DNA of 64,000 nucleotides from Minisyncoccota bacterium (GTDB taxonomy: Bacteria; Patescibacteriota; Minisyncoccia; Phycocordibacterales; UBA9973). The position numbers and the translations under genes were made by a program. Under the pieces are notes generated by a model that worked only from the letters and a program-made list of their open reading frames with translations, was not told the DNA's origin and ran no database searches. Below are positions 4,344 through 50,841 of this stretch, in pieces; the first letter of the stretch is position 1, and each line of letters begins with the position of its first letter. The stretch spans positions 21,107 to 85,106 of the forward strand of contig JBAYHR010000001.1 of NCBI GenBank assembly GCA_041666045.1. Direction: 5' to 3'.

Positions 4344-4432
4344 AATAGTGTATAATTGATATACTTGTCCCGTTAGAAATTTAATAAGCGGGAGAATAAA
4401 ATAATATGAAAAAAATTAAAATTTCTAATGGG

Positions 4433-4843: not shown

Positions 4844-4848
4844 AATTT

Positions 4849-5253: not shown

Positions 5254-5372
5254 TAATCCACATAGGTGTGATTTTGTCTTATCTTTATGGTATAATACAA
5301 AAAGCTTAATAAATTTAGGCAAATTATTATTAGTTTTAAGGTCGCTCAATTATTATTAATTATTAAAAAAAT

Positions 5373-5747: not shown

Positions 5748-5753
5748 TAATAT

Positions 5754-21208: not shown

Positions 21209-22237
21209 ATGTCAACAATTTCATTTAAACCAAAACAAGTTACAAAGAAAATAACATCACATCTTCATGATCGTGCGTCTGATGTTATTATGAATCGTTT
21301 TGGCTTGACTGCTGATTCTAAGAAAAAAACTCTTGAAGAGATTGGAAAAAAATATTCTATTACAAGAGAGCGTGTAAGACAAATAGAAGATGCAGCCTTA
21401 AATTTAATAAAAAAGTCTGAAGCTTTTAAATCTGAAAAGGCTACTTTTGATGAGATTGAAAAATTAATACATTCCTTAGGTTCAATTGTTGCAGAGCATG
21501 AACTTCTTGCTCATGTATCAAAAGATAAAGCAACTCAAAATCACATTCATTTTTATTTAGTATTAGGAGATTCTTTTAAAAAGCATAAAGAAGATGAAAA
21601 TTTTCATACTCGTTGGAGTGTTGATGATGAAATGGCATCCAAGGTTCATGATTCTCTTAAGAAACTTTATTCTGGATTAAAAGATGAAGATCTTGTTCCT
21701 GAAAGTGAAATGATTAAAAAGTTTTTTGATCAAATGAAAGATGTTTCTGATGAATATAGAAATGAGGAAATTGCTCGCAGATGGCTTGCTATGTCAAAAT
21801 CTGTTTCTAAAAATCCATTAGGAGAATGGGGAAAATCTACATCACCAAATGTGCATACGCGTGGAGTTAAAGATTATGCATTTTTAGTTATGAGACGTCA
21901 TGGTTCCCCTATGCATTTTAGAGAAGTAGCAGATGCTATTACTAAAACTTTTGGAAGAAAAACTCATTATGCAACTTGTCACAATGAACTTATAAAAGAT
22001 TCAAGATTTGTTCTTGTTGGACGCGGATTATATGCGCTTGCTGAATGGGGATATAAGACTGGTATTGCTCGTGAAGTTATTAGTGATATTTTAAAAAAAG
22101 AAGGTCCTCTTTCAAAAGAAAATGTTGTTGAGAAAGTAATGAAAGAAAGGTATTTTAAGAAAAATACTATTTTAGTTAATATTCAAAATCCAAAGTATTT
22201 TAAAAAGAATAAAAACGGTCTTTATACTTTAGCTTAA
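21209..22237 (+). CDS. sigma-70 region-4 HTH domain protein with unknown C-terminal domain
   Basis: N-terminal KKTLEEIGKKYSITRERVRQIEDAALNLIKK is a region-4-like HTH. Promoter TTGACA-N16-TATAAT upstream. Confidence 0.5.
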   Translation: MSTISFKPKQVTKKITSHLHDRASDVIMNRFGLTADSKKKTLEEIGKKYSITRERVRQIEDAALNLIKKSEAFKSEKATFDEIEKLIHSLGSIVAEHELLAHVSKDKATQNHIHFYLVLGDSFKKHKEDENFHTRWSVDDEMASKVHDSLKKLYSGLKDEDLVPESEMIKKFFDQMKDVSDEYRNEEIARRWLAMSKSVSKNPLGEWGKSTSPNVHTRGVKDYAFLVMRRHGSPMHFREVADAITKTFGRKTHYATCHNELIKDSRFVLVGRGLYALAEWGYKTGIAREVISDILKKEGPLSKENVVEKVMKERYFKKNTILVNIQNPKYFKKNKNGLYTLA

Positions 22238-22439: not shown

Positions 22440-23768
22440 ATGGTTGATTCAATAGCTTATTTTATTTACAATGCTGTCTCGTTTTTTATATCTGGATTGT
22501 TTTTTCTTTTTTCTACGCCTTGGCTTTTATGGCTTTGGTCTTTAATAGGCACGGTGTTGCTTGGTTATATTGCATGGAAACTTTGGATGCATTATATACG
22601 GCAGAATTTTATTTCTGGCATTGATTGGGTTTTGCTTGAAATTATTCCACCTAGAGATGTTTTGCGTTCACCAAAAGCAATGGAACTTTTTATTACCAAT
22701 GGTCTTTATCATTTTAGTAATAAAGGTGGAAGAGAAACATATTGGCAGGGAGCAGTTTGGTTTTGGTTTTCTTTAGAAATAGTTTCTATTGAAGGACAAG
22801 TGCATTTTTATCTTCGTACGCCATCTCGTTTAAAAGAATATATTGAAACTCAAATGTATGCGCAATATCCTCAAGCTCAAGTGAAAGTAGTTGATGATTA
22901 CACTTTGGCTGTTGATGAGATTACTCCAAAGAGTGCTTGGAATCTTTATGGATGTGAATTTGGATTAGAAAAACCTGAAGCATATCCTGTTAAAACTTAT
23001 ATTGATTATGGACTAGATAAGGATCCAAAAGAAGAATTTAAAGTTGATCCAATCTCTCCAGTAGTAGAGCTTTTTGGTTCACTTCAAAAAGGGGAACAAA
23101 TGTGGTTGCAAATAGTTATTACTCCATCTAAAAAAGAATATAAAACCAAAGGCACTTATTTTGGGCATCATAATTGGATAGAAGAAGCGCAATTAGAAAT
23201 AAAAAAATTATTAAAACCTTTTACTGCTGAAAAAGATGAAGGAGCTAGAATAGAAATTCGTGTTCCAGATTTTTATAAAAAACCAGTGGAAGGAATAACT
23301 GCAAAGATGTCAAAACTTGGTTTTGATACCGGAATTAGAGTTTGTTATGTTGCAAAAAAAGAAGCATTTAAAGTAAACAGCAGAAGAAATTTACGTCTTA
23401 TTTTTCGCCAATATCAAAATTCTTATTCAAATGGTTTTAAACGCATTAATGGCACACAAGCAGACGCATATAGTGGGTATTTTATCGCTTCTCCTAAAAC
23501 AATTATGATGCTTGCGAATAGAATGCTTCATGAGTATAGAAATCGTACTTTTTTTCATCCACCGTTACGACACAAACTTTTTAATAAACATAATATTTTT
23601 TGGCCTCTTTCTATGTGGTTTAAACCCTATTTTCATTCTGAAACTTTTGTTTTAAATACAGAAGAATTAGCAACAATTTGGCATTTCCCTGGTCAGATAT
23701 TGAAAGTTCCTACTTTGGAACGCATAGAGTCAAAAGAAGCCGCTCCACCTACAAATTTGCCTATTTAA
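22440..23768 (+). CDS. membrane protein of unknown function (442 aa)
   Basis: Two N-terminal TM helices, then a large soluble domain. No family recognised. Confidence 0.5.
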   Translation: MVDSIAYFIYNAVSFFISGLFFLFSTPWLLWLWSLIGTVLLGYIAWKLWMHYIRQNFISGIDWVLLEIIPPRDVLRSPKAMELFITNGLYHFSNKGGRETYWQGAVWFWFSLEIVSIEGQVHFYLRTPSRLKEYIETQMYAQYPQAQVKVVDDYTLAVDEITPKSAWNLYGCEFGLEKPEAYPVKTYIDYGLDKDPKEEFKVDPISPVVELFGSLQKGEQMWLQIVITPSKKEYKTKGTYFGHHNWIEEAQLEIKKLLKPFTAEKDEGARIEIRVPDFYKKPVEGITAKMSKLGFDTGIRVCYVAKKEAFKVNSRRNLRLIFRQYQNSYSNGFKRINGTQADAYSGYFIASPKTIMMLANRMLHEYRNRTFFHPPLRHKLFNKHNIFWPLSMWFKPYFHSETFVLNTEELATIWHFPGQILKVPTLERIESKEAAPPTNLPI

Positions 23769-23769
23769 C

Positions 23770-24714
23770 TTGCTTATGGAAAACTTTTCTTCTTCAAATG
23801 AGGTAATTAGTCTTATTGATAATTTGCCTAAAAATAGTTCTTTTAAAAAAATAATTATTTTTTCTGCTGTTAGTTTGATTGTTTTTATTTCTCTTTTTTA
23901 TTTTCTATTTTTAAGCGCGCCATTAAGTTTTCCTAAAGGGAAAATAATAAATATAGAGGAGGGTACAAGTCTCAGGCACATATCTGGTGATTTTAAAACA
24001 AATAAGATAATTCGTTCAAGAATTGCTTTTGAATTTTTTGTGATAATTTACGGTGGAGAAAAACATTTAGTGTTGGGAGATTATTTATTTGAAGGTAAAT
24101 TACCAGTTTTTGAAGTTGCAAGAATTGTTTCAAGAGGTGAACATAATTTAGCTCCAGTTAAAGTGACTATTCCAGAAGGTTTTAATGTTGTTGATATTGC
24201 GGAATCTTTTTCTGTAAGATTGTCATCTTTTAACAAAGATAAATTTCTTTTAGAAGCGAAACCAAAAGAAGGATATCTTTTCCCCGATACTTATTTTTTC
24301 TTTACCGATTCAAACGAGGAGGATGTTTTAAAATATATGAGTGATAATTTTAATAAAAAAACAGCTGATATTTTTTCTGTCTCTTTAAGTAGATCTAAAA
24401 AAGATATTATAATTATGGCATCTATAATAGAGAAAGAAGCAAAAGGAGATTCTGACAGAGAAATTATTTCAGGAATTTTATGGAATAGAATTTCAAAAGG
24501 AATGCCACTTCAAGTGGATGTGGCTCCTGATACTTATAAAACAAAAGGTTTGCCAGACAGTCCAATTTGTAACCCAGGTCTCGAAGCAATAAAAGCGGCT
24601 ATTTATCCAAAGAGTTCAAATTATTTTTATTATTTACATGATAAAAATGGCATAATACATTATGCTAAGACTTTTGAAGAACATAAACAAAATAAATTTA
24701 AATACTTAAAATAG
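23770..24714 (+). CDS. mltG: endolytic murein transglycosylase MltG (YceG-like)
   Basis: N-terminal TM. C-terminal LQVDVAPDTYKTKGLPDSPICNPGLEAIKAA matches the YceG catalytic region. Confidence 0.65.
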   Translation: MLMENFSSSNEVISLIDNLPKNSSFKKIIIFSAVSLIVFISLFYFLFLSAPLSFPKGKIINIEEGTSLRHISGDFKTNKIIRSRIAFEFFVIIYGGEKHLVLGDYLFEGKLPVFEVARIVSRGEHNLAPVKVTIPEGFNVVDIAESFSVRLSSFNKDKFLLEAKPKEGYLFPDTYFFFTDSNEEDVLKYMSDNFNKKTADIFSVSLSRSKKDIIIMASIIEKEAKGDSDREIISGILWNRISKGMPLQVDVAPDTYKTKGLPDSPICNPGLEAIKAAIYPKSSNYFYYLHDKNGIIHYAKTFEEHKQNKFKYLK

Positions 24715-36730: not shown

Positions 36731-36822
36731 TTGATTATCGTTTACTGAGGTCCGCGAAGCGGAATTACCGATGTGAGTGTAAGCGAACAGGTAATAACGG
36801 GCCAAAACGTTAATTTCAAAAA

Positions 36823-36846
36823 CCCCCGAAAGGGGGTTTTTATTTT
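36823..36846 (+). terminator. intrinsic terminator
   Basis: aaaaacccccgaaagggggttttt followed by a T-run. Confidence 0.7.
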
Positions 36847-36870: not shown

Positions 36871-37485
36871 ATGAGTGATGAAGAAATAAAAAAATCTGAA
36901 AATATAGAAGAAATTCCTGTTTCTCCTGAAGAAGTTGATTCTGAGGTTGTAGAATTTGAATTTAATGATGATGGGGAAGAGGATTTAAAGAAGACCCTAA
37001 AGAAACTTAGAGCTGATTTAAAAGTTTGTAGAAAAGAAAAGGAAGAGTATTTAACTGGTTGGCAGAAAGAGCGAGCAGAATTTGCTAATTATAAAAAACA
37101 AGAAGAAGACAGAAAAGCAAACTTTTCGGAAGGCTTGCGAGAAAGAATACTTTCAAGATTTCTTACTGTTATAGATAGTTTCAATATGGCTTTTGCAAAT
37201 AAAGAAGGCTGGGAAAAAGTTGATGAAAATTGGCGTAAGGGTGTGGAATATATTTATACGCAGATGAATAATATTTTTGAAGAATATGGAGTAAAACCAG
37301 TAGGAGAAATAGGGGAATCTTTTGATCCAAGCATGCATGAATCAATAGAAATGGTACCAACTGATAAAAAACAAGATGATCATAAAGTTTCTCAAGTGGT
37401 TCAAAAAGGTTACAAATTAGGCGATCGCATTATTCGTCCAGCTAGGGTGAATATATTTGAATATAATGAATCAGCAGGAAAGTAG
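36871..37485 (+). CDS. grpE: nucleotide exchange factor GrpE
   Basis: Coiled-coil N-terminus. C-terminal GESFDPSMHESIEMVP...GDRIIRPARV. Confidence 0.8.
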   Translation: MSDEEIKKSENIEEIPVSPEEVDSEVVEFEFNDDGEEDLKKTLKKLRADLKVCRKEKEEYLTGWQKERAEFANYKKQEEDRKANFSEGLRERILSRFLTVIDSFNMAFANKEGWEKVDENWRKGVEYIYTQMNNIFEEYGVKPVGEIGESFDPSMHESIEMVPTDKKQDDHKVSQVVQKGYKLGDRIIRPARVNIFEYNESAGK

Positions 37486-39124
37486 AAATTGTGAACACTG
37501 TAATCAAAAATTCTCAATATCTGAGGGTGAATTATCTTTATATAAAAAAGTTGGTATTGAACTGCCAACAATATGTTTCTTTTGTAGAGTAAAACAACAT
37601 TTATCTTTTTGGATGTTTGGAAAATTTAGAAAAGGGAAGTCGGATCTTTCGGGAGAAAGTTTGATTACAGTTTTACCAGAGAAAAATAGATATCCTATTT
37701 ACACATTGCATGAATGGCACAGTGACGCGTGGGACGCTATGGATTATGGTCAAGATTATGATTCATCAAAATCATTTTTTACTCAATTACAAGAACTTCA
37801 AGAAAAAGTTCCTCATTCTCATCAAAATGGTGCTAAAAATACAAATTGTGATTGGTGCGATGATGTATGGAATTCAAAGAATTGTTATTTATCACGTTCT
37901 ATGGAAACGTGTGAAGATTTATATTATTCATACAGAAATTTATGGGTGAAAAATTCAATTGATGTATCAGTTTGTTTTTATTCAGAGAAATGTTTTGATT
38001 GCGTAAATTGTTATAATTCTTACAAATTATTTTATTCTAGGAATTCCAAAGATTGCATTGATTCATATTTTTTACAGGATTGCAGAAATTGTCAGAATTG
38101 TTTTATGTGTTGGAATCTCAGGGGTAAATCATATTGTATAGAAAATATTCAATACACCAGGGAAGAATATTTAGAAAAATTAAAAACTTTTAAGCTTCAT
38201 TCGTATAATTCAATTCAGAAATATAAAAGACAGTTAGACAAAATAGCTCAAAACGAAGTAGTTCACAGAGAAAATTTTAATCTCAAAACTTATAATTCTG
38301 ATGGAGACAATTTAACTAACACAAAAGACTGCTACAATTGCTTTACAATTAATGATTCTGAAGATAGCTATAATTGTATTAGGGGAATGAAACAAAAATC
38401 AGATATTGATACTAATGGTTGTTGGTATTCTGAATTATTAGGCAATTGCAGTTGTTGTCTAAACAGTTATGCAGAAAAATATAGCGTGTGGTCTTCGTCT
38501 AGATATTCTGAGTATTTAGATTTATGCATAGAATGTGAATATTGTTTTGGTTGCGTAGGTTTAAAAAAGAAAAAATATTGTATTTTAAATAAACAATATG
38601 AGAAAGTTGAATATGAAAAACTTCGTGAACAAATTATTTCAGATATGAAAAAGCAAGGTGAATATGGCAAGTTTTTGCCTTATTCTATGTCCGCCGGACC
38701 ATTCAATTTTTCTACTAGTTTTTTGTATTTTCCAGATGTTAAAAAAGAAGATATTTTGAAACTTGGTGGTTATTGGGAAGATATCAACGAAAGCCACATA
38801 GATGGAATGCCCACAAGTGAATTACCTGATTCTATAAATGACGTATCCGATGATATTTGCTCTAAGGCTCTTATTTGTCCTGCCACTGGTTGGCGTTTTA
38901 ATATCGCTCAAAATGAGCTTTCTTTTTATAGAGAAAACAATATTCCATTACCGAGATATCATTTTGATGTACGAATAAAAGATAATATGAAATATACAAC
39001 TGTTTTACAAGCTTATCCTTATAAATGTTTTTATTGTAAAAAAGATATAAATGCATATTATCCACCAGAATGGGAATATAAAAAAATAGCTTGCGAAGAA
39101 TGTTATAAACAAAATATAAGTTAA
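37457..39124 (+). CDS. large cysteine-rich protein, paralog A (zinc-ribbon-like termini, internal duplication)
   Basis: 555 aa with dense CxxC / CxNCxNCFxC motifs. Two internal copies of C..CFGCV.L....YCI.NKQY.KEEY. N- and C-terminal E.EL.FY.....LP..C..C modules. Confidence 0.5.
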   Translation: MNIMNQQESRNCEHCNQKFSISEGELSLYKKVGIELPTICFFCRVKQHLSFWMFGKFRKGKSDLSGESLITVLPEKNRYPIYTLHEWHSDAWDAMDYGQDYDSSKSFFTQLQELQEKVPHSHQNGAKNTNCDWCDDVWNSKNCYLSRSMETCEDLYYSYRNLWVKNSIDVSVCFYSEKCFDCVNCYNSYKLFYSRNSKDCIDSYFLQDCRNCQNCFMCWNLRGKSYCIENIQYTREEYLEKLKTFKLHSYNSIQKYKRQLDKIAQNEVVHRENFNLKTYNSDGDNLTNTKDCYNCFTINDSEDSYNCIRGMKQKSDIDTNGCWYSELLGNCSCCLNSYAEKYSVWSSSRYSEYLDLCIECEYCFGCVGLKKKKYCILNKQYEKVEYEKLREQIISDMKKQGEYGKFLPYSMSAGPFNFSTSFLYFPDVKKEDILKLGGYWEDINESHIDGMPTSELPDSINDVSDDICSKALICPATGWRFNIAQNELSFYRENNIPLPRYHFDVRIKDNMKYTTVLQAYPYKCFYCKKDINAYYPPEWEYKKIACEECYKQNIS

Positions 39125-39165: not shown

Positions 39166-40950
39166 ATGAGCAAAAACAATGAAAAAAGAATATGCCAAAA
39201 CTGTAAAAAAGATTTTGTTATAGAACAAGAAGATTTTAACTTTTATGAAAAAATAAAAGTCCCAGCACCAACTTGGTGCCCAGAGTGTAGGTTAATAAGA
39301 AGATTAGCTTATCGTGAATCTAGACCTTTGTATAAAGATATTTGTGATAAATGTGGGGAGGAAATTATAAGTATTTTTGCAGAAAATTCTGAAATTATAG
39401 TTTATTGTAGTTCCTGTTGGTGGGGAGATAGCTGGGATGCAATGGATTATGGAAAAGATTATGATTTTTCTAGACCTTTCTTTGAACAATTTTATGAATT
39501 ACAAAAATTAGTACCTCGTGAAGCTACTGGTCAAAAAAATTCTGAAAATTGTCAATATTCCAATGGTGATGTTCGTTGTAAAAACTGTACTTTAACTTTT
39601 GATTGTCTTGAGGCTATTAATTGTTATAATTCTCAAATTGCCATATTTTCTAAAGATTCAATAGATTCAGATAGCGTTATGAATGCTGATCATACTTATG
39701 ATAATTTGTGTTCAAATGGTATTTATAATACAAAATTTATTTATTATTCTGATGAATGTCTTGATTGCTCTTTTCTTTTTTATTGCTTAGGGTGTACAAA
39801 TTGTTTTGGTTGTGTAAATTTAAGAAATCAAAAATATTGTATTTGGAATAAACAATACACAAAAGAAGAATATAAAAAAGAAATTGAGAAATGGGATTTG
39901 GGTAGTTATAAAACTATACAAAAAGCAAAGGAAAAATTTATGGAACTTTATTATAAAATTCCAAGGCGTTTTGCTTTTATAACAAATTCCATTAATGTTA
40001 CTGGAGAAGATATTATAAATAGTAAAAATTGCAAAAATTGTTTTTTTACTAGGCATGGAGTAGAAAATTGTAAATATATTTTTTCATGTGGTTTGCTCTT
40101 AAAAGATAGTTATGACGCTACTTTTGGAGGAGATAAATCAGAAATATTTTATGAAACAAATGGCGGAATGCAATCCCAAAGATGTTTTTTTAGTCGTGCA
40201 CCTAATGGTTCTAAGGACATAGAATATTCCGATAGAGTTTTTAACTGTTCTAATTTATTTGGTTGCGTAAATTTGAGAAATAAAAGTCATTGTATTTTTA
40301 ATAAGCAATATACTAAAGAAAAATATTTTGAAATGGTAGAAAAAATAAAAAGGCAAATGAATGAAATGCCATACATTGATAGAATGGGCAGAATTTATAA
40401 ATATGGAGAATTTTTTCCTAGTGAGTTGTCCCTATGGGCATATAATAAAAGCTGGGGACATGAATTTTTTCCATTAAACAAAGAAGATATTTTAAAAAGA
40501 GGATTTAATTGGCAGGACGACCCCAAAAGAGATTATGAAATAACTATTAAATCAAAAGATTTACCTGATCATATTAATGATGTTTCAGATGATATTTTAG
40601 ATGAAGTAATAGAATGTGAACATAATGGAAAAGATTGTAATCAGCAATGCACTACAGCTTTTAGGATTTTACCGAATGAATTGCAATTTTACAGGCAGAT
40701 GAATTTAGCTTTACCAAGGTTATGTCCAAATTGTCGCCACTATGAACGAATTAAAAAAACAAACCCACCAAAACTTTGGCATAGAAAGTGTATGTGTAAT
40801 GGCGTAGAATCAAGCAATAAGGAATATAAAAATACTATTAAACATTTTCATGGAGATAAACCATGTTCCAATGAATTTGAAACTGCTATAAGTGATGAAA
40901 GAAAAGAGATAGTGTATTGTAAAGAATGTTATCAAGCTGAATTTATATGA
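39166..40950 (+). CDS. large cysteine-rich protein, paralog B
   Basis: 594 aa. Same architecture as 37457-39124: CTNCFGCVNLRNQKYCIWNKQYTKEEY and CSNLFGCVNLRNKSHCIFNKQYTKEKY. Confidence 0.5.
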   Translation: MSKNNEKRICQNCKKDFVIEQEDFNFYEKIKVPAPTWCPECRLIRRLAYRESRPLYKDICDKCGEEIISIFAENSEIIVYCSSCWWGDSWDAMDYGKDYDFSRPFFEQFYELQKLVPREATGQKNSENCQYSNGDVRCKNCTLTFDCLEAINCYNSQIAIFSKDSIDSDSVMNADHTYDNLCSNGIYNTKFIYYSDECLDCSFLFYCLGCTNCFGCVNLRNQKYCIWNKQYTKEEYKKEIEKWDLGSYKTIQKAKEKFMELYYKIPRRFAFITNSINVTGEDIINSKNCKNCFFTRHGVENCKYIFSCGLLLKDSYDATFGGDKSEIFYETNGGMQSQRCFFSRAPNGSKDIEYSDRVFNCSNLFGCVNLRNKSHCIFNKQYTKEKYFEMVEKIKRQMNEMPYIDRMGRIYKYGEFFPSELSLWAYNKSWGHEFFPLNKEDILKRGFNWQDDPKRDYEITIKSKDLPDHINDVSDDILDEVIECEHNGKDCNQQCTTAFRILPNELQFYRQMNLALPRLCPNCRHYERIKKTNPPKLWHRKCMCNGVESSNKEYKNTIKHFHGDKPCSNEFETAISDERKEIVYCKECYQAEFI

Positions 40951-41118: not shown

Positions 41119-42900
41119 ATGGAAAAAGAAAAAGAATATACAAATTTGCACCGAGGCTTGGTGCTTAAATATTTTTGGCAAGTTATTAAGAAATTTAAAG
41201 TTTCGTTTTTTGCTGTTATTTTTCTTACCATAATTGCTTCAAGTCTTGATGTTTATATACCACTCCAATATTTGAAATTGTGGAATGTTTTAAGTAAAAA
41301 TGATTTTACTTTTATAAATACTGCACAATCAATTATACTTTTAATTTTAACTTTAAATCTTACCCGTTGGGTTATTCGTAGATCTAGTACTTTTTTAAAT
41401 GTATATTTTGAAGCTGGGGTTATGGCTGGACTTCGTGAGCAAGCTTTTTCATACATGATAGGGCACTCACATTCATTTTTTACAAATAATTTTGGAGGGT
41501 CATTAACTCAAAAAATAAATAAATATGCTAGAGCATTTGAAAAATTAACTGACAGAATAGTGTCTGATTTATTACCGCTTATTGTTCGAGGAATTGGAAC
41601 AGTTATTGCTGTTTATACTTTGCTTCCAAAATATTCTTTAATTTTAGGAATATTTTGTATTGTATTTTTATTGACTGTTTTTATTTTTACTCGTTATAAA
41701 CTTAAATATGATATTGCAGCATCTATGGCAGACACTAAAACCACAGGAGCTATATCAGACTCTATTGGTAATCATTCTTCAATACAATTATTTACTGGTC
41801 ATGAATATGAAAAAGAACGTGTTGGTGGTGTTATACAAAAGCAAAGAAAAGCTTCTCTTTTAAATTGGTATTTATGGGAAACGCTTGCTTTAATTGAAAG
41901 TTTTTATTCTATAGTGATTGAATTTATTATTTTCTGGATTGCTCTTGGAGATTGGAAACTTGGCATTATAGGCTTGCCTGTAATGGTATTACTGCAAAGT
42001 TATATTATTCGTCTATTGGAGAATTTATGGAATTTTGCTGGTTTTGTTCGCGCTTTTTATGAAGCTTTTGCTGATGCAGAAGAAATGGCAGTTATTTTAA
42101 ATACACCTTATGAAATTGTTGATAATTCTAAAAAAGTTGTTAAAAACGTAAAGGGAGACGTTGTTTTTGATAATATTACTTATGTATATAAGAATAATAA
42201 TGTTAAAGTATTTGATAATTTTTCATTAAAAATTTCTTCAGGACAGAAGATAGCAATTGTTGGTTTTTCTGGAGCAGGAAAGACGACTTTTGTTCGTTTA
42301 TTGATGAGATTATTTAATCTTACTTCTGGAAAGATTTTAATTGATGATATTGATATAAATAGTATTAGTCAGAAAAATCTTAGAGAGCAGATTGCTTTTG
42401 TGCCTCAAGACCCAGTACTTTTTCATCGTACTTTAATGGAAAATATTCGTTATGGTAAACGTGATGCGACAGACGAAGAAGTATTAAAAGCTAGCTCTCT
42501 TGCGCACTGTGATGAATTTATTAAATTTTTACCGAAAGGTTATGAAACTTATGTTGGTGAAAGAGGAGTAAAATTATCTGGCGGGGAACGTCAGCGTGTA
42601 GCTATAGCTCGTGCAATTTTAAAAAATGCACCAATACTTATTTTAGATGAAGCGACGTCATCGTTAGATTCTCATTCAGAATCTTTAATTCAAGATGCTT
42701 TTAAGAAATTGATGAAAGATAAAACGACAATTGTTATTGCTCATAGACTTTCAACTATTAAAGAAATGGATAGAATTATTGTTATTGAAAATGGAAAAAT
42801 TATTGAAGATGGTACTCATGTTAAACTCACAAATAAAAAAAGCGGACTTTATAAAAAACTTTGGGATCTACAAGCCGGAGGATTTAAAAAAGAAATTTAA
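41119..42900 (+). CDS. ABC exporter, fused permease and ATP-binding protein (MsbA-like)
   Basis: Six-TM N-terminal half. Walker A GFSGAGKTT, signature LSGGERQRVAIARA, Walker B ILILDEAT. Extended -10 TGGTATAAT upstream. Confidence 0.85.
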   Translation: MEKEKEYTNLHRGLVLKYFWQVIKKFKVSFFAVIFLTIIASSLDVYIPLQYLKLWNVLSKNDFTFINTAQSIILLILTLNLTRWVIRRSSTFLNVYFEAGVMAGLREQAFSYMIGHSHSFFTNNFGGSLTQKINKYARAFEKLTDRIVSDLLPLIVRGIGTVIAVYTLLPKYSLILGIFCIVFLLTVFIFTRYKLKYDIAASMADTKTTGAISDSIGNHSSIQLFTGHEYEKERVGGVIQKQRKASLLNWYLWETLALIESFYSIVIEFIIFWIALGDWKLGIIGLPVMVLLQSYIIRLLENLWNFAGFVRAFYEAFADAEEMAVILNTPYEIVDNSKKVVKNVKGDVVFDNITYVYKNNNVKVFDNFSLKISSGQKIAIVGFSGAGKTTFVRLLMRLFNLTSGKILIDDIDINSISQKNLREQIAFVPQDPVLFHRTLMENIRYGKRDATDEEVLKASSLAHCDEFIKFLPKGYETYVGERGVKLSGGERQRVAIARAILKNAPILILDEATSSLDSHSESLIQDAFKKLMKDKTTIVIAHRLSTIKEMDRIIVIENGKIIEDGTHVKLTNKKSGLYKKLWDLQAGGFKKEI

Positions 42901-42977: not shown

Positions 42978-43595
42978 TTATATTTTTTTAACATTTTCTA
43001 AAAATGCTTTATTTGTTTCTGGGTCAAGTTTATCTGTAACTATTATCATAAGTTCTGTGGAGAGCTCAAGATCTTTTTTGATATTTGTAAATAAGTTTTC
43101 ATAAGGAAAAGGTGAGACCCAAACAGTATTTTTTATACAAACAAAATTTGCTTTCTTTAAAAGATAACGCAATGATTCTCTTTCTGATTTTCTTTCTTCT
43201 GGAAGGTCTAGAATTATAATTCTCCAAAATCCATCCCAAGTAGTTGAGACTAGGGCATCTTCACCTTCGAGTTTTATGCAGTTTAATTTAGATTTTCCTT
43301 TTTTAGTTATTTTCAAATAGTCTTGATTATCCGAATGAACCATTTCAGCGCAACCTGATTCTATTAGATTTTTAACAGAACGGGTTATTGCGTAACCAGT
43401 TTTATCTCCTCCTTTTTGAGGAGGAGTGCCCTTTAGGGCGAGATGGTGATTTTTTGAATTACCACCCCCAACCCCCTCCTTATTAAGGAGGGGAGTTTTA
43501 TTCTCCATTTTTTTATTTAATTCACCAATAGAAATAGCTGGCTTTTCAGCTAATACTTTTAAAATAACCTTTTGTATATTAGGTTTTTTAAACAT
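42978..43595 (-). CDS. PaaX-like winged-helix regulator family protein carrying an in-frame repeat insertion
   Basis: C-terminal W.GFWRIIILDLPEERKSERESLRYLLKKANFVCIKNTVWVSPFP resembles the PaaX C-domain. Start set at MFKK, which follows the TGCTATAAT box. The track ORF begins at 43631. Confidence 0.45.
   Translation of the reverse strand: MFKKPNIQKVILKVLAEKPAISIGELNKKMENKTPLLNKEGVGGGNSKNHHLALKGTPPQKGGDKTGYAITRSVKNLIESGCAEMVHSDNQDYLKITKKGKSKLNCIKLEGEDALVSTTWDGFWRIIILDLPEERKSERESLRYLLKKANFVCIKNTVWVSPFPYENLFTNIKKDLELSTELMIIVTDKLDPETNKAFLENVKKI
43406..43493 (-). repeat. GC-rich palindromic element inserted in frame (copy B)
   Basis: Reverse complement matches 26382-26471 apart from about 4 substitutions. 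Same reading frame and peptide KEGVGGGNSKNHHLALKGTPPQKGG. Confidence 0.7.
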
Positions 43596-43741
43596 AATAT
43601 AAATTATAGCAAATATTAGTAATTTTAACAACTATTTCGCGACCACGAAATACTTGTCAAAAAATTAGGCTTAGTATATAATAGGGCTATTAATTATTAA
43701 CCCTGATTATCGGGTCAGGAAATTTAAATAAAATATATATT

Positions 43742-45658
43742 ATGTCAAAAATATTAGGTATAGACTTAGGTACAACAAATTCGGCTTTTGCTGTAATAGA
43801 AGGTGGAGAGCCAAAGATTTTAGAAAACTCTGAGGGGATGCGCACGACTCCTTCGATAGTAGCAGAATCAAAAACAAAAGATCGTATCTTTGGAATTTTA
43901 GCAAAACGTCAAAGTGTGACAAATCCCAAAAATACAATTTTTCAAATTAAAAGATTTATTGGTCATACATTTGATGAACCGGGTGTTCAGAAAGATATTC
44001 AGACAATTCCTTTTGAAACAAGAAAATCTGAAAATGGTGGAATTGAAATAAAAATGGGAGATAAATTTTATCGTCCAGAAGAAATCTCTGCTATGATTTT
44101 GCAAAAAATTAAAGCAGACGCAGAAGCACGAATTGGAGAAAAAATAACAGAAGCTGTGATAACAGTCCCTGCATATTTTAATGATTCACAAAGACAAGCT
44201 ACAAAAGATGCTGGAAGAATCGCAGGTCTTGATGTAAAAAGAATTATAAACGAACCTACTGCAGCAGCTCTTGCATATGGATTTAATAAAAATAAAAATG
44301 AAAAAATAGCAGTGTTTGATTTCGGAGGAGGAACATTTGACGTGTCTATTCTTGAAGTTGGTGATGATGTTGTGGAAGTAAAATCTACAGATGGTGACTC
44401 TCATTTAGGAGGAAAAGATATTGATCAAAAAATTATGAATTGGTTGGCTGAAGGTTTCCAAAAAGAAAATGGTATTGATTTAAGGAAGGATCCATTGGCT
44501 CGTCAACGTTTAGATGACGCAGCAGAAAAATCAAAAATAGAACTTTCAACAGCTGTTGAAAGTGAAATAAACATTCCATTCATTACATCAAGTGATGCAG
44601 GTCCACTTCACCTTGTACGCACAATGAAGCGTGCAGAGTTGGAAGAAATTTGTAGAGAATTTGTTGATCGCGCAATGAGTATTACAAAAAGAGCTATGGA
44701 AGCTTCGCCTTTTAAAATAAATGAAATAAACGAGGTTATATTAGTTGGAGGACAGACAAGAATGCCTATGATTCAAAAGGCAGCTGAAGATTTCTTTGGA
44801 AAGAAACCACATATTGGCGTGAATCCAGATGAAGTTGTAGCGCTTGGTGCTGCAGTGCAAGCTGGAGTATTGCAAGGAGATGTTAAGGATATTCTTCTTT
44901 TGGATGTTATACCACTTTCTTTAGGTATTGAAACATTAGGAGGAGTTGCAACTAAATTAGTTGAAAGAAATACAACTATCCCTAGTTCTAAATCACAAAT
45001 ATTCTCAACTGCAGCAGATAATCAAACTTCAGTAGAAATTCATATCGTTCAAGGTGAACGTCCTATGGCATCTGACAATAAATCTCTCGGAAGATTTATA
45101 TTAGACGGAGTTCCACCATCTCCTCGTGGTATGCCTCAAGTAGAAGTGACTTTTGATGTTGATGCAAATGGAATTTTAAATGTTAAAGCATTAGAGAAAT
45201 CTTCTGGTAAAGTTCAATCAATTAGAATTGAGGCAAGTTCTGGTCTTAAGGAAGAAGATATCAAAAAAATGCAAGCTGATGCAGAAATTCATGCTGAAGA
45301 AGATAAAAAGAAAAGAGAAGTTGCTGATATAAGAAATACTGCTGAGATGACTTTGTATACAGCAGAAAAAGCATTGAAAGATAATGAAACAAAAATTCCT
45401 GAGGAATTAAAAAATGAAGTTAATAATAAAATAACTGCATTACGCACAGTGAAAGATGGTGTTGATGTAGAAGCAATTAAAAAAGCTATGGAAGAACTTT
45501 CTTCTGAAATGTCTAAGATCGGGGAAGCTCTTTCTAAAGCATCACAAAATACACAAAATGAAGCTTCAGCCGGAGAAACCAAAGAAGAGGATAATGTACG
45601 AGATGCAGAATTTAAAGAAGGGGAAAATCCTGAATCTGGGGAGGTAAAAAAAGAATAA
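43742..45658 (+). CDS. dnaK: molecular chaperone DnaK
   Basis: [26 protein letters not shown]. 638 aa. Promoter TTGTCA-N17-TATAAT upstream. No CIRCE inverted repeat seen. Confidence 0.95.
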
Positions 45659-45664
45659 TTTAAT

Positions 45665-45692
45665 TTACTAAAAAGCCCACTTTTGGGCTTTT
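45665..45692 (+). terminator. intrinsic terminator after dnaK
   Basis: aaaaagcccacttttgggctttttag. Confidence 0.7.
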
Positions 45693-45725
45693 TAGTTTAA
45701 TATATATTTGGTATAATTTAAAAAT

Positions 45726-47846
45726 ATGGAATTGTCAGAAATACCTAAAAATAAAGATCTCACATACCTTGGGCTTACCACATTTCGTGATAAAAATAGA
45801 CTTTTTGGCATAAAGCGCAAAGATAGACGTCAGCATGTTTATGTTCTTGGAAAATCAGGTACAGGTAAATCTGTGCTTATGTTTAATATGGTTATTCAGA
45901 ATGTTGTAAATGGCGATGGTGTTTGTGTTGTAGATCCTCACGGTGAACTTGTGGAAGCAGTATTGTCTGCTATTCCACCACATAGATTAAAAGATGTTGT
46001 TTATTTTAATCCTGCTGATACAGATTACCACATTGGTTTTAATGTTTTAGAACTTGCTGATCCTAAATATAAACATTTAGTTGCATCAGGTCTCATGGGA
46101 ATTTTCACAAAGATTTGGGCAAATGCTTGGTCTGCTCGTATGGAATATATTTTAAACAATGCAATTTTAGCCTTACTTGATACTCCCGGGACGACACTTC
46201 TTGGTATCCCTAGAATGTTAGTGGACAAAGATTACAGACAGAAAATTATTTCAAATTTGAAAGATCCTGTTATTAAAGCTTTTTGGGTTCACGAATATGA
46301 AGCTTGGCAAGATAAATTCAGAAATGAAGCTATCGCGCCTATTCAGAATAAAGTTGGACAATTTCTTTCCAGTTCAATAATTCGTAATGTTGTTGGTCAA
46401 TCTATAAGTACAATAAATATTTTTGACATAATGAATGAGGGAAAGATTTTCCTTGTGAATGTTTCAAAGGGACGTATTGGTGAAGACAATTCTGCATTAT
46501 TAGGAGGAATGTTAATTACGAAAATTCAGCTTGCCGCTATGGAGCGCGTGCGTATTCCAGAAGATGACAGAAAAGATTTTTATTTATATGTTGACGAATT
46601 TCAAAACTTTGTTACTGATTCTTTTGCAAGTATTTTGTCAGAAGCTAGAAAATACAGATTGAATCTTACTGTTGCCCATCAATACACCGCTCAGCTTGTT
46701 TCAGACAAAAGTTCCAGCGTGCGTGATGCGGTTTTTGGAAACGTTGGAACAATGATAATTTTTCGTTGTGGCGCCGATGATGCTGATTTTTTAGAAAAAG
46801 AATTTGATCCTGAATTTACTCCGCAAGATATTGTAAATTTGCCAAACTATAAAGTTTATTTAAAACTTATGATAGATGGTGTAACATCAAGGCCATTTTC
46901 CGCAAAAACTTTGCCTCCGATGGTGAAGTCGGGAAATAAAGAAATAGAAAATGAAGTTATTAGATCTTCTCGGGCTCTTTATTGCAAATCAAAAGAAGTT
47001 GTTGAAAGAGAAATCAATAATTGGTCTGGAATGTCCATTGGAAATGAAAACGAGACAGGTAATATGGAGAAATTTAGCGCCAAATGTTCAATTTGTTTTA
47101 GTGATACTTTTGTTCCATTTAAACCAGAACCAGGAAGGCCAGTTTATTGTAGAGATTGTATAGCTAAAATGAAATCAGGGGAATTGAAACCGTTAAAAGG
47201 TTCAATGAAACAAATTTCTTATGATGAAACTAAATTTTTCAAACCTTTGGCTGATTTGGGTATAGAATTTCAACAAAAGGATACTTTAAGCAGTAAGCCC
47301 GAAGAAGAAAGATATTCTGAAAGAGTTAATAAACAAATTGCACATAATCAGGTTAATAAAAGTGGAAATAATAAACCAGGGATTTTTTCAGCAATTAAAA
47401 AGGTATTTACACCGCCTTTTGCAAGAGACAGGTTTAATAAAAATATTCCACCAAAACATATTCGTTCTGGCGAGGAAAATTTAGCATTAAGAGATATTTT
47501 AAACAAAACTCTTTCAGAAAATAAAGTTTTTGAAAATAAAAAAGAAGAGGTTAAGGAGATTGAAGAAGTAAAAAAAGAAACACCAGCACCGATTTCTTTA
47601 AATGAATTGGGAAATTCAAAACCTGCAACTCAATCAAAATTGAAAGATAGATCTGCAAGTAATGAAAAAATGAATAATTTAAAAAATTTAATTTCAGAAA
47701 AAACAAAAGAACAAGAAAAGCAAAAAGAAGAAAAAGTTGAAATAAAAAAAGAGCCAGAAATTAAAAAAGAGGAAAAGCCCACTATTCCACAAAAAGAGAA
47801 AGTGAAAGAAGTACCAGAAGACGTTTTAAGAAAAATTTTAGAATAA
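45726..47846 (+). CDS. FtsK/HerA-superfamily P-loop ATPase (DUF87 / VirD4-TraG-like) with zinc ribbon and K/E-rich tail
   Basis: Walker A VLGKSGTGKS, Walker [12 protein letters not shown], sensor [14 protein letters not shown]. CxxC...CxxC ribbon (CSICF...CRDC). Long lysine/glutamate-rich C-terminus. Confidence 0.6.
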   Translation: MELSEIPKNKDLTYLGLTTFRDKNRLFGIKRKDRRQHVYVLGKSGTGKSVLMFNMVIQNVVNGDGVCVVDPHGELVEAVLSAIPPHRLKDVVYFNPADTDYHIGFNVLELADPKYKHLVASGLMGIFTKIWANAWSARMEYILNNAILALLDTPGTTLLGIPRMLVDKDYRQKIISNLKDPVIKAFWVHEYEAWQDKFRNEAIAPIQNKVGQFLSSSIIRNVVGQSISTINIFDIMNEGKIFLVNVSKGRIGEDNSALLGGMLITKIQLAAMERVRIPEDDRKDFYLYVDEFQNFVTDSFASILSEARKYRLNLTVAHQYTAQLVSDKSSSVRDAVFGNVGTMIIFRCGADDADFLEKEFDPEFTPQDIVNLPNYKVYLKLMIDGVTSRPFSAKTLPPMVKSGNKEIENEVIRSSRALYCKSKEVVEREINNWSGMSIGNENETGNMEKFSAKCSICFSDTFVPFKPEPGRPVYCRDCIAKMKSGELKPLKGSMKQISYDETKFFKPLADLGIEFQQKDTLSSKPEEERYSERVNKQIAHNQVNKSGNNKPGIFSAIKKVFTPPFARDRFNKNIPPKHIRSGEENLALRDILNKTLSENKVFENKKEEVKEIEEVKKETPAPISLNELGNSKPATQSKLKDRSASNEKMNNLKNLISEKTKEQEKQKEEKVEIKKEPEIKKEEKPTIPQKEKVKEVPEDVLRKILE

Positions 47847-47866
47847 TATTAACCTTTTATTTAACA

Positions 47867-48106
47867 ATGACAGCTATTTTAATAATTGTAATAATTTCAT
47901 CTGTTTTAATAATTCGTTTTTTAGGTTCTACTGTATTTTTTTGGTGTATTCCAATTGCAATATTGGGGGTGCTTATTGCTTTTTTCTATCCAATTTTTAG
48001 AGATGAAGGTTGGGTTCCAGATGCTTCAAAACTGCCAAAGAAAATTTGGAAAAGATATTTAAAATGGGAATCAAAATTTTTCAAATGGCTAGATCGTTAT
48101 TTTTAG
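47867..48106 (+). CDS. small two-TM membrane protein
   Basis: 79 aa. Hydrophobic helices IIVIISSVLIIRFL and IPIAILGVLIAFF. Sandwiched between the ATPase paralogs. Confidence 0.35.
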   Translation: MTAILIIVIISSVLIIRFLGSTVFFWCIPIAILGVLIAFFYPIFRDEGWVPDASKLPKKIWKRYLKWESKFFKWLDRYF

Positions 48107-48154
48107 ATTATGATGGAGAATAAGTTGAAATTATAGTAAAATAGGCAAATATAT

Positions 48155-49684
48155 ATGGCAAAGACGAATCGGGTTCAGATAATCAAATATGCTCCGCCTC
48201 CACCAGAATTACCTGTTTTTGGAAAGGTAAAACCAGAAGAGGTTTCTTTTATTGGGCGTACGAATTATGTCGCTGCTCTTGAAGAAAAGAAGTTTATTTT
48301 CGGTATAAAGCGTGTTGACCGCCGAAGGCACCTTTATATTATTGGAAAGTCTGGCGTTGGTAAGACCAAGCTTCTTGAGCTTATGATTAGACAAGATGTT
48401 ACATATGGCCATGGTATGTGTTTAATTGACCCACATGGTGATGTTATTGATGCAATGCTGGATTATATACCTAAAGAGCGTATTGAAGATGTTTGCATTA
48501 TAGATCCTTCAGATGTTGATTTCCCAGCTTCTTTCAACCCTTTGGCAAATGTTGATCCAATGTTTAAATTTCAATTGACTCAAGGTTTGATTGAAGTTCT
48601 ACAAAAACAATTCGGGGCAAATTGGACTCCAAGACTTGAGCACGTTTTTCGTTTTACATGTTTAGCCTTACTTGATTATCCTCATGCGACAATGCGCGGA
48701 ATGATATCAATGCTTACAGATAGAAATTATAGACAGAAAGTTGTTGAATATATTACAGATGATATGGTTAAAAGATTCTTCGCAATCGAATTCGCGGATT
48801 GGTCTGAAAAATTTGATACAGACGCCATTATTCCGCTTGTAAATAAACTCGGACAATTTTTGTCTGATCCTTTGCTTCGTAATATTTTCGGACAAAAACA
48901 AAATAAAATAGATATTAGCAAATTGATGAATGAGCAGAAAATAATTTTTATTAATTTATCTAAGGGACGTATCGGTGAGGAAAATTCGTCTTTCTTTGGT
49001 TCAATGTTTTTAACAAAAATAAAACAAGCTGGAATGGAACGTGCTGCTATTCCTGAAAATGAGCGCAATGATTTTTATCTGTATGTAGACGAGTTCCAAA
49101 ATATAGTTACTCAAACATTTGAAAATATTTTGTCAGAAGCTAGAAAATATGGTTTGAATTTAACTGTTGCTCATCAATACGTAGGACAGATTTTACCAAA
49201 AGTTCATCAAGCTGTGTTAGGAAACGTGGGTAGTGTTATTACTTTCCGTGTTGGAGGAGAAGATGCTGTAAAATTAAAACCAGAATTTGCTCCAATATTC
49301 GAAGTTAAAGATATGATCAACTTAGCTGTTGGTGAAATTTATGTCAAGATGACAATTGATGGAGAATCTTACGATCCATTTTCTGCTGAAACTTTAAGAG
49401 TTTTACCGCCAACGCATCCATCATATAAAAAAGAAATTATTGAAGCTTCTCGTAAAAAATATTCAATTTCAAAAGATGACGCACAAAAGCTTATTTCAGA
49501 AGAAGAAGCAACGATTATAAGAAGTGCTGAAGAAAAAGCAATTATAGAAGGAAAAGCAAAAAGGAAAGCGAAAGAAAATAAGAAAGAAATAGAAGAAACA
49601 GATGAAGAAGAAGAAATAGAAGAAGAGAAAGAAAAAATAGTACAAAAAATAAAAAAAGATGGCGAATCTGAGCCAATGATTTAA
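48155..49684 (+). CDS. FtsK/HerA-superfamily P-loop ATPase, paralog of 45726-47846
   Basis: [38 protein letters not shown]-rich tail. About 40% identical to the upstream paralog by eye. Confidence 0.6.
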
Positions 49685-49694
49685 TTTTAAATAT

Positions 49695-50342
49695 ATGAGT
49701 AAAGATTATTACAACATTTTAGGTGTGAAAAAAGATGCTTCTAAAGACGAAATAAAGAAGGCTTTTTATAAATTGGCGCATAAATATCATCCCGATAAAA
49801 AAGGCGGAGATGAAGTTAAATTTAAAGAAGTAAATGAAGCTTATCAAACTCTTTCTGATGATTCTAAGCGTTCAAAATATGATCAATTTGGATCAGGTTT
49901 TGAAAATATGCAAGGAGGACAAGGAGGTTATCAACAAGGTGGATTTGGTGGTTTTGATTTTTCTGGCTTTCAGAATGGAGGAGCTGAATTTGATTTTGGA
50001 AACTTAAATGATATTTTCTCAGATTTTTTTGGAGGTGGAAGGGGTGGCTTTAGAGCACGAACTCCTCGTGGACGGGATTTCCAAACTGAAATTCAAGTTT
50101 CTTTTATAGATTCTATTTTAGGAACAGAGAAAAAAATAATTATAACTGGGCATAAAGAAATAACAATTAAAATACCAGCAGGTATTCGCAGTGGTGAAAG
50201 TCTTAAAATGACAGGTTATGGAGAGACAGTTAAAAATGGAAAAGCAGGGGATTTGTATATAAAAATAAATGTAAAAATGCCAACTAAGATTTCTAAAAGA
50301 GCCCACGAGCTCTTAGAAGAACTCAAAAAAGAGGGGATTTAA
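49695..50342 (+). CDS. dnaJ: DnaJ-like co-chaperone lacking the CxxCxGxG zinc-finger domain
   Basis: J-domain DYYNILGV...HKYHPDK, G/F-rich linker, C-terminal peptide-binding fragment. Only 215 aa. Confidence 0.75.
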
Positions 50343-50754: not shown

Positions 50755-50841
50755 GAATATAAAAAATTTTTTTTAAAAGCTGAGTTTTTAACTCAGCTTT
50801 TTTTATTTACTTATTTTAATATTTCTTGCTATGATTAATAA

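Follow-up and report, generated by a model that had tools for sequence, protein, structure and literature searches.

Why two ATPases of the coupling-protein type should lie between dnaK and dnaJ is the question raised by a 64,000-nucleotide stretch of a Minisyncoccota bacterium genome (GenBank assembly GCA_041666045.1, contig JBAYHR010000001.1, positions 21,107 to 85,106 of the forward strand), referred to here as the window. An earlier, sequence-only reading described the ATPases, here called A and B, as a paralogous pair inserted into the dnaK-dnaJ unit, and suggested that they form a translocation apparatus together with a pilin-like array, or else a HerA-type defence or repair module. It did not see the conserved partners of the pair, which were found by comparing 85 related loci: a membrane protein (X), the protein encoded upstream of it (c1), a family of cysteine-rich proteins (Cys570) and grpE. 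It is firmly supported that A and B are an anciently diverged, chromosomally inherited, Patescibacteria-wide pair within a conserved gene set of X, c1 and Cys570. The chances are about even that they serve a membrane-tethered translocase or remodelling machine which is independent of any type IV secretion system (T4SS). The related loci, cited below by L numbers, are phylogenetically clustered, and their open reading frames (ORFs) were called with a simple script.

Two paralogous coupling-protein homologues

The genes concerned form a row on the + strand, with gaps of 67, 20, 48 and 10 nt between successive genes from dnaK to dnaJ:

43742-45658, + strand: dnaK (Hsp70), directly upstream of A (Pfam HSP70, E 2.6e-239)
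45726-47846, + strand: ATPase A, 706 aa, A-type and coupling-protein-like (from its ORF, Pfam matches and place in the A clade)
47067-47174, + strand: zinc ribbon of A, aa 448-483, CxxC-x17-CxxC (zf_Tbcl_2 / TIGR04272)
47867-48106, + strand: 79-aa ORF with two predicted transmembrane (TM) helices, in a variable slot between A and B
48155-49684, + strand: ATPase B, 509 aa, B-type and coupling-protein-like
49695-50342, + strand: short dnaJ, 215 aa, beginning 10 nt past B

A and B are paralogues, as had been proposed, with 44% identity over 448 aa (E 6e-135). The Walker A motif reads GKSGTGKS in A (aa 42-49) and GKSGVGKT in B (aa 64-71), and both Walker A and Walker B are intact in the two proteins. 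The earlier assignment of these P-loops to the VirD4/TraG kind holds, with four Pfam families above their gathering cut-offs in both: TrwB_AAD_bind (A 40.1, B 31.1 bits; cut-off 20.5), T4SS-DNA_transf (25.9 and 27.4; 20.1), TraG-D_C (26.0 and 22.2; 22) and DUF87 (39.9 and 27.0; 23.2). The DUF87 model overlaps the coupling-protein families too.

A family profile run against PDB sequences places TrwB (5e-9) ahead of DotL (5.8e-5) and HerA (7.6e-5). In a Foldseek search, the AlphaFold2 (AF2) model of B matches DotL (6sz9_A, 5.8e-7), followed by Cagβ (8dol) and TrwB (1e9s) at ~1e-6 and HerA at 1.9e-4, although TM-scores are low (0.34-0.47) and the model is poor over the second, C-terminal half of its nucleotide-binding domain (NBD). 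The model also predicts, with confidence, a helical insert at ~aa 135-245, an all-α domain (AAD) inside the NBD. Type IV coupling proteins (T4CPs: VirD4/TraG/TraD/TrwB/DotL/Cagβ) share this layout of an FtsK/HerA-superfamily NBD with an inserted all-α domain and are the closest PDB entries in both sequence and structure. Because of these profile, Pfam and Foldseek ranks, A and B are classed as VirD4/TrwB/DotL-type T4CP homologues and not as HerA, FtsK or VirB4 proteins. Pfam detects neither a HAS-barrel nor HerA_C in A or B, and none of FtsK_SpoIIIE, FtsK α or FtsK γ. For the VirB4 type, AAA_10 matches A only, at 20.0 bits against a cut-off of 27.5, and the NCBIfam VirB4/TraC/TrbE models score 14-20 bits against 567-1020.

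A and B nevertheless fail other defining T4CP features. They have no TM domain, with no hydrophobic 19-residue window in either protein; they miss the curated NCBIfam TraD/VirD4/CD1115 models (20-51 bits, best 39.7-51.3, against cut-offs of 250-647); and they have no T4SS, relaxase or mobile-element genes nearby. In contrast to known coupling proteins, they are unlinked to virB4, relaxase or oriT-type functions, and their presumed anchor is a separate or fused PF26449 protein whose ~380-aa domain is not found in known coupling proteins. They are also chromosomal, near-universal in one phylum, split into two deep paralogues and more conserved than DnaK.

Membership of the FtsK/SpoIIIE group, which would have made the pair a housekeeping one, is not borne out: FtsK-type Pfam domains are absent from A and B, and the cultured Saccharibacterium Candidatus Southlakia epibionticum has a separate, canonical FtsK (SEML1_0096), complete with FtsK_SpoIIIE motor, γ domain and 4TM N-terminal region, that is essential (PMC10633639). 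As this essential FtsK coexists with the family, the family is not an FtsK substitute, and replacement of FtsK was ruled out.

Two old clades across Patescibacteria

B has more than 8,000 homologues, the best of which are 83-97% identical, and an exhaustive HMMER scan returned 5,425 clusters (50% identity) at E<=1e-30. GTDB species representatives were scanned with a 10-sequence alignment, as the 27-sequence family alignment was too divergent. The best 80 species-representative loci all carry Patescibacteria or unclassified metagenome-assembled-genome titles, apart from a few other labels that are probably errors. Lineages among the loci include Nomura-, Staskawicz-, Uhr-, Abawaca-, Peri-/Peregrini-, Davies-, Buchanan-, Doudna-, Moran-, Portnoy-, Falkow- and Kerfeldbacteria, with others. 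A and B have cores at least ~45% identical to those of family members, with the motifs FGIKRxDRRRH and SEARKYxLxLTxAHQY.

Three architectures occur: B-like proteins of 440-510 aa, A-like proteins with a 200-490-aa C-terminal extension that often includes a zinc ribbon, and proteins with a 280-440-aa N-terminal extension. Clustering of the ATPase cores gives an A clade (n=62) and a B clade (n=40). This split crosses lineages and classes, so the duplication is old.

The family itself has been reported. Quiñonero-Coronel et al. (2025) counted 5,713 VirD4-type homologues in 2,918 of 3,035 Patescibacteria genomes (96%, about two per genome), compared with VirB4 in 2,417; only 148 of the 5,713 genes lie near virB4 and most are far away (PMC12102498). 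Exaptation was raised there as a possibility, and no partners were described. These orphan T4CP homologues belong to the same protein family as A and B. On a connection of Patescibacteria T4CPs with DnaK, DUF87, or cysteine-rich or zinc-ribbon proteins, the literature searches found only this census and a T4SS review. None of the papers found gives an account of how the family divides into A and B, of a PF26449 anchor in split or fused form, of arrays of Cys570 genes, of the C-terminal peptides or of the interleaving with grpE, dnaK and dnaJ. To the extent of the literature searched, the paralogue structure, the anchor, the Cys570 association, the predicted docking peptides and the chaperone interleaving are therefore new.

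An old arrangement between dnaK and dnaJ

The gene order of the window recurs in its relatives. A Nomurabacteria contig (L001) encodes a PaaX_M-like protein on the opposite strand, then dnaK, A, B, dnaJ and a ~190-aa protein without a Pfam match, in the same order as the window. The arrangement dnaK-A-…-B-dnaJ is present in eight related loci, namely L001 and, with extra genes between A and B, L004, L005, L006, L009, L010, L011 and L085, and dnaJ follows B directly or behind Cys570 genes in 13. Across the same genome pairs, identity to the window is 87-93% for B and 87-91% for the A core, compared with 71-75% for DnaK and 58-78% for DnaJ. The motor cores thus evolve more slowly than Hsp70 in the Nomurabacteria-like clade of the window.

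What varies is the content of the A-B slot. L001 has nothing there, the window has the 79-aa ORF, and L005 and L010 have this ORF followed by a Cys570 gene; in other relatives a single Cys570 gene or a pair of them occupies the slot, sometimes together with an ArsR-type helix-turn-helix (HTH) gene and others. The description of the 79-aa product as a two-TM protein agrees with its two strongly hydrophobic 19-residue windows. Homologues in the same position are found in L005 (80% identity) and L010 (62%) and not in most other relatives; as it is kept in two relatives and missing from most, the ORF is considered real and limited to a narrow lineage.

The statement that the pair is inserted between dnaK and dnaJ is thus right as to gene order and wrong as to an acquired module. 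GC content of the region is 0.315-0.345, compared with 0.26-0.345 elsewhere in the window (the organism being low in GC, ~0.30), and no tRNA, flanking repeats or integrase was found around the locus. On these comparisons of sequence, the pair is an old, vertically conserved chromosomal arrangement under strong purifying selection and not a recent insertion. A remnant of a conjugative or mobile element would fit the break in the usual dnaK-dnaJ pair, and relatives of the family are typical of mobile elements. However, the same arrangement in many relatives from species to family depth, the ordinary GC content, the lack of a tRNA, integrase or flanking direct repeat, and the very strong purifying selection on both ATPases make such a remnant extremely improbable, and recent mobile insertion was ruled out. 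Ancient domestication at the root of Patescibacteria is compatible with the explanation that fits best.

The same conservation bears on the proposed HerA-type or other ATPase-based module for anti-phage defence or DNA repair. HerA/DUF87 proteins are ring ATPases, acting in repair as HerA-NurA and in defence as HerA-Sir2 or HerA-DUF4297. A and B share their superfamily and pass the DUF87 cut-off, PADLOC returns a partial mad8 match (~1e-12) alongside weak matches to HerA models, the gene content of the A-B slot varies, and relatives are found on plasmids and viral-labelled contigs. Yet HerA ranks below the coupling proteins in both sequence and fold, no HAS-barrel is matched, and no NurA, Sir2, DUF4297, methylase or nuclease partner is encoded alongside. 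The PADLOC matches are confined to partial mad8/HerA P-loop hits, with nothing for the neighbouring genes, which encode chaperones, Cys570 proteins, an ABC exporter and housekeeping functions. In addition, a near-universal, vertically inherited family whose cores are more conserved than DnaK, with a Cys570 partner at ~71% identity (about the DnaK level), shows the opposite of the patchy, fast-evolving pattern of defence genes. A defence or repair role is therefore highly improbable and was largely ruled out.

The chaperone genes show some variation of their own. The short DnaJ of the window (215 aa), which comprises a J domain, a G/F region and a partial C-terminal domain and lacks the CXXCXGXG zinc finger, resembles those of L004, L007, L010 and L011 (215-219 aa), and full-length dnaJ genes (361-372 aa) take the same position in the sister genomes L001, L002, L006, L008, L009 and L085. 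A PaaX_M gene (Cas2-like domain; 42978-43631, − strand) is divergent from dnaK and kept in L001, L004, L006, L010 and L011; since no hrcA is seen here, its product may regulate the chaperone/ATPase unit. The gene for a full-length ClpB disaggregase lies 27 kb upstream (14414-17107), which gives the genome a complete Hsp70-ClpB bi-chaperone system besides the ATPase pair.

A presumed membrane anchor, separate or fused

The TM domain that A and B lack may be supplied by X, which is encoded with its neighbour c1 22 kb upstream of A:

21209-22237, + strand: c1, a Sigma70_r4 + HARE-HTH protein, the conserved upstream neighbour of X
22440-23768, + strand: X, 442 aa, with a ~380-aa domain (precomputed Pfam PF26449) behind two N-terminal TM helices

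The window copy of X was found by tblastn with X proteins of other classes (E 1e-42 to 1e-52). Across loci X has ~430-470 aa with N-terminal TM helices, and 3,051 homologues carry PF26449.1. Local Pfam and NCBIfam copies give no match, a PDB profile search finds no relatives, and PF26449 is unnamed and appears in no paper found.

X lies immediately upstream of the A-type ATPase in 31 of 62 loci, and its domain is fused to the N-terminus of 19 ATPases (nine A-type, ten B-type), which provides a gene-fusion, or Rosetta-stone, link between them. The C-terminus of the window X, EELATIWHFP…APPTNLPI (consensus EELAxxxHFP…APPxNLP), is the counterpart of the fusion junction in these relatives, and an N-terminal motif of B matches the X-to-ATPase junction, of which it retains the second half. 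X is presumed to be the membrane anchor of A. The ATPase genes of the window's clade apparently left their place behind X and relocated next to dnaK.

c1 accompanies X in 30 of 39 X-bearing loci, often with secD-secF ahead of c1. A Sec-linked role read from this secDF-c1-X-ATPase string was considered and kept as context only, because neighbours in compact genomes are mostly unrelated housekeeping genes; A-type genes elsewhere adjoin nrdRDG, topA, murG-ftsW-mraY, divIC, alaS, mnmA and efp. Envelope genes are also seen near both proteins. mltG/yceG follows the window X at a 1-nt gap (23768-23770), and A-type genes of other classes (L047, L051, L063 and others) often precede divIC, a glycosyltransferase gene and a D-Ala-D-Ala carboxypeptidase gene, or lie near murG-ftsW-mraY. 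A cell-envelope and division neighbourhood is hence recurrent around X and A-type genes.

Transposon data are available for one cultured member. In Ca. Southlakia epibionticum ML1 the c1 orthologue SEML1_0294 (Sigma70_r4 + HARE-HTH) is essential (Wang et al. 2023, PMC10633639, supplementary tables). The adjacent SEML1_0293, a 921-aa protein with TrwB_AAD_bind at 402-719, is scored NE/NE/NE and tolerates many transposon insertions (PMC10633639). Its layout and gene order match the X-fused A-types of L044-L046, with orthology by annotation only.

C-terminal tails and the zinc ribbon

A consists of a core (~aa 1-440) followed by a long C-terminal extension, in which conserved short motifs, a K/E-rich stretch and the terminal peptide EVPEDVLRKILE can be recognised. 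The zinc ribbon noticed in the earlier reading is confirmed by zf_Tbcl_2 (1.3e-10) and TIGR04272 (8.7e-12), both above cut-off, with CxxC pairs at aa 454 and 475. A ribbon of this kind is present in 45 of the 62 A-type proteins, and zinc binding by zf_Tbcl_2/TIGR04272-type domains has been demonstrated for small proteins of Methanosarcina (PMC12704099). The A-type tails of the window's clade share the motifs FFKPLADLGIEF, KPGIFGAIKKVF, ENLALREVLNK, PISLNxLK and DRSAS…MNKLKDLIS, with the rest of the tail disordered.

Both tails are K/E-rich, as had been noted, with K+E making up 31% of the last 264 aa of A and 58% of the last 45 aa of B. The acidic tail of B ends in E-P-M-I, and a terminus of the form (E/A)-P-(L/M/I)-(I/V/L)-COOH after an acidic stretch is found in 36 of 41 B-type proteins from several classes. 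In coupling proteins, the DotL tail scaffolds adaptors and the C-terminal peptide of TraD docks on TraM. By analogy, the extensions of A and B may carry docking peptides too.

The Cys570 family

Cys570 proteins are the partners most closely associated with B. In the window two such genes follow grpE, ahead of an ABC exporter:

36871-37485, + strand: grpE (Pfam GrpE, E 4e-39)
37466-39124, + strand: Cys570a, zinc ribbons and β-solenoid, 36 Cys (found by tblastn with the Cys570 of L004, 34% identity, E 4e-77)
39166-40950, + strand: Cys570b, 594 aa, 39 Cys, paralogue of Cys570a
41119-42900: ABC exporter (ABC_membrane + ABC_tran)

The resulting order is grpE-Cys570a-Cys570b-ABC exporter-PaaX_M(-)-dnaK-A-79-aa ORF-B-dnaJ, so that all three genes of the Hsp70 system are interleaved with the ATPase/Cys570 system. 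The most likely start of Cys570a is the ATG at 37466 (MNQQESRNCEHC…) and not the TTG at 37457; the gene then shares 20 nt with the end of grpE, so the two may be translationally coupled. The ABC exporter adjoins or sits between Cys570 genes in the window, L001 and L008.

Members of the family have ~550-600 aa, and all 7,819 homologues are labelled 'hypothetical' with none carrying a Pfam domain. Of 40 loci with B, 32 have one to nine copies flanking it, compared with only 2 of the 45 in which no B was called, and these two contain fragments of B (Fisher p 1.4e-13, the loci not being phylogenetically independent). Nine Cys570 fragments or copies surround a single B in L021 (Staskawiczbacteria), and seven are spread over both strands in L028 (Abawacabacteria).

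The AF2 model of Cys570b (predicted local distance difference test score, pLDDT, 84.7; predicted template modelling score 0.86) has terminal zinc ribbons and a β-solenoid-like centre, and sequence and model together predict four to five ribbons. Structure searches with this model give no PDB match at E<1 and none in BFVD below 0.006, leaving only a faint resemblance to left-handed β-helices and scattered hits to single zinc ribbons. A Cys570 profile finds no relative among PDB sequences, and the window pair matches no Pfam or NCBIfam model in the local copies. Within the family, the N-terminal ribbon is duplicated near the C-terminus (hhalign probability 99.2%), and the C-terminal ribbon is homologous to that of A (hhalign probability 96%, E 3.7e-9). 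Cys570b orthologues are ~71% identical between the genomes compared; conservation at about the DnaK level means there is no arms-race signature.

An FtsK-like ATPase beside arrays of paralogues that share a conserved C-terminal element recalls EccC of type VII secretion, by analogy only. There is no homology past the superfamily, neither Esx/WXG proteins nor membrane channel components are encoded here, and Cys570 proteins are large and zinc-rich, with no secretion signal.

Relation to type IV secretion

The pilin-like array with which the pair had been linked does exist: at 3303-6095 five tandem genes match Pfam T4SS_pilin (VirB2-like), the first also containing fn3. The array resembles the pilin arrays described for the essential T4SS of Patescibacteria. 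Its union with A and B in a single apparatus is not supported, as VirB4, VirB6, relaxase and other T4SS genes are absent from the window, which encodes no VirB4-sized ATPase, and from all 85 related loci, and the census places few of the homologues near virB4.

A and B might still be genuine coupling proteins of the Patescibacteria T4SS, encoded apart from it and delivering DNA or effectors to the host cell. Their coupling-protein-like fold and Pfam families agree with this, as does the presence of a five-gene VirB2-like pilin array in the same window. T4CP genes are often separate from virB4, and the essential T4SS locus of Ca. S. epibionticum (SEML1_0006-0019) is itself without a recognisable coupling protein. 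X could provide the missing membrane domain. Against this, homologues occur in more genomes than VirB4 does and rarely near virB4 (148 of 5,713), T4SS genes are found in 0 of the 85 loci, the conserved partners are instead X, c1 and Cys570, and scores against the NCBIfam TraD/VirD4 equivalogs are far below their cut-offs. The X-fused homologue of Ca. S. epibionticum is non-essential whereas the T4SS and its pilins are essential; as SEML1_0293 is dispensable, the A-type member is not needed for the essential T4SS function in that organism in laboratory co-culture. A dedicated T4SS role is, on balance, doubtful.

A candidate T4SS-independent machine and its substrate

The T4SS-independent machine proposed at the outset would work as follows. 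By analogy with TrwB, A and B would form ring motors, either homo- or hetero-oligomeric. X would tether the A ring to the cytoplasmic membrane, as a two-polypeptide version of the "TMD + NBD/AAD" coupling protein (TMD, TM domain). By analogy with DotL and TraD, the disordered tail of A with its ribbon and short motifs, the acidic tail of B with its E-P-(L/M/I)-(I/V/L) end and the C-terminal ribbon of Cys570 would be docking elements. ATP hydrolysis would then translocate or remodel a macromolecular client without a VirB4-based T4SS. Favoured as clients or adaptors are proteins, namely the Cys570 family, which may be kept competent by DnaK, DnaJ and GrpE. This preference is based on the interleaved Hsp70 genes, on a second, independent chaperone juxtaposition (dnaK-dnaJ-c1-X-A in L040) and on the Cys570 arrays that track B.

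A nucleic-acid substrate comes a close second, and nearly as likely, given the presence of zinc ribbons and charged tails and of c1 as a DNA-binding neighbour. As a rival in its own right, this would make A and B DNA or RNA translocases, acting in uptake after ComEC, in T4SS-free export or transfer as in Streptomyces TraB, or at the septum, with c1 and the zinc-ribbon proteins recognising the nucleic acid. TrwB, the closest solved relative, is a DNA-dependent ATPase. FtsK/SpoIIIE and TraB are membrane-tethered motors of the same superfamily, and c1 could be a separate DNA-recognition element comparable to the γ domain. The ribbon and highly charged tail of A, the four to five ribbons of Cys570, the Sigma70_r4 and HARE-HTH DNA-binding domains of the conserved upstream neighbour c1, the frequent proximity of A-type genes to divIC and ftsW-murG-mraY, mltG directly after the window X, and weak NCBIfam matches to the DNA-translocating ATPase CedD all agree with such a role. 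Conversely, the linked genes include no nuclease, relaxase, recombinase or competence gene, and Patescibacteria already possess a canonical, essential FtsK. Since c1 is essential but the ATPase beside it is dispensable, c1 may be no more than a transcription factor. This rival also leaves the chaperone interleaving and the Cys570 paralogue arrays unexplained. Its probability is judged to be low, at a level that still merits attention.

Several points weigh against the T4SS-independent machine with protein clients. Its mechanism is inferred from gene neighbourhood, gene fusion and analogy. In such compact, strongly syntenic genomes, a position next to dnaK/dnaJ/grpE, secDF or envelope genes may lack functional meaning, and only one clade and one further locus show the chaperone linkage, among 85 loci that were the best-scoring hits of capped scans and not a random sample. 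Cys570, being zinc-rich and cytoplasmic in appearance, would make at least as good an adaptor or binder of nucleic acids as a translocated client, and the ribbon of A, its charged tail and the neighbouring DNA-binding protein c1 agree equally well with DNA or RNA as the substrate. The non-essentiality of SEML1_0293 in laboratory co-culture disfavours a core housekeeping role, at least in Saccharibacteria. T4CP genes are often far from virB4, and a VirB2-like pilin array is present in the window. Finally, the B model has a mean pLDDT of 63.8, being confident over aa 70-320 and below 50 over aa 332-413.

In its fullest form, the proposal is that A, B, X and Cys570 make up an unrecognised transport or remodelling machine, nearly universal in Patescibacteria, built on a domesticated coupling protein, T4SS-independent and, in one clade, co-expressed with the Hsp70 system. 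This is put forward tentatively, the analysis leaning somewhat against so complete a version. If true, the machine could be a missing piece in the membrane handling of proteins or nucleic acids by ultra-small episymbionts. Should it move either without a T4SS, it would be a new case of a conjugation component domesticated for core cell biology. Much of bacterial diversity belongs to Patescibacteria, whose conserved lineage-specific genes mostly lack a known function. The unexplained coupling-protein homologues of the census become a defined and testable system of paralogues, anchor, Cys570, predicted docking peptides and chaperone link. With a c1/X-fused-ATPase pair and transposon-sequencing data in a cultured, genetically tractable Saccharibacterium, these hypotheses are directly testable.

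Expression signals

Candidate transcription signals in the chaperone region were compared with the gene order. Over 36-51 kb the best promoter-like site lies just upstream of dnaK (43654-43682, 11 of 12 matches). Strong terminator-like hairpins are located before grpE (36818-36841) and after an 84-aa ORF downstream of dnaJ (50775-50801), and none was found between A and dnaJ. Two further elements occupy the gap between dnaK and A:

45670-45694, + strand: hairpin AAAAAGCCCA-cttt-TGGGCTTTTT with a T-run, directly after dnaK (an inverted repeat)
45708-45716, + strand: extended -10 element TGGTATAAT, 9 nt ahead of the A ATG (read from the sequence)

No Shine-Dalgarno motif is present in the sequence ahead of A. 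The stretch 45670-45716 could be an attenuator followed by a promoter belonging to A, giving a near-leaderless A mRNA. As there is no terminator between A and dnaJ and a hairpin follows dnaK, dnaJ is probably co-transcribed with A and B, and dnaK may be partly insulated from them.

Relatives outside Patescibacteria chromosomes

A few relatives are found in other settings, where their gene context is uninformative. An orphan gene of Sulfitobacter is 37% identical to the family. Five IMG/VR contigs labelled viral (L086-L090) encode tail-less A-type ATPases, 46-54% identical to A, the L086 copy being 69% identical to an A-type of the candidate phyla radiation (CPR). With a GC content of 34-60% and neighbouring genes unlike the housekeeping genes of CPR, they point to genetic exchange of CPR chromosomes with mobile or viral elements, or else to mislabelled contigs.

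A Bacillus subtilis plasmid (L107; CP025942.1, 6135-8770) encodes a 696-aa 'ATPase' that is 27% identical to B. The Bacillus plasmids with this gene are small (24-28 kb) and non-mobilizable. At or before the N-terminus of the protein lies an X-like segment (E 3.7e-7), and the combination of X and ATPase is thus a module that also occurs outside Patescibacteria.

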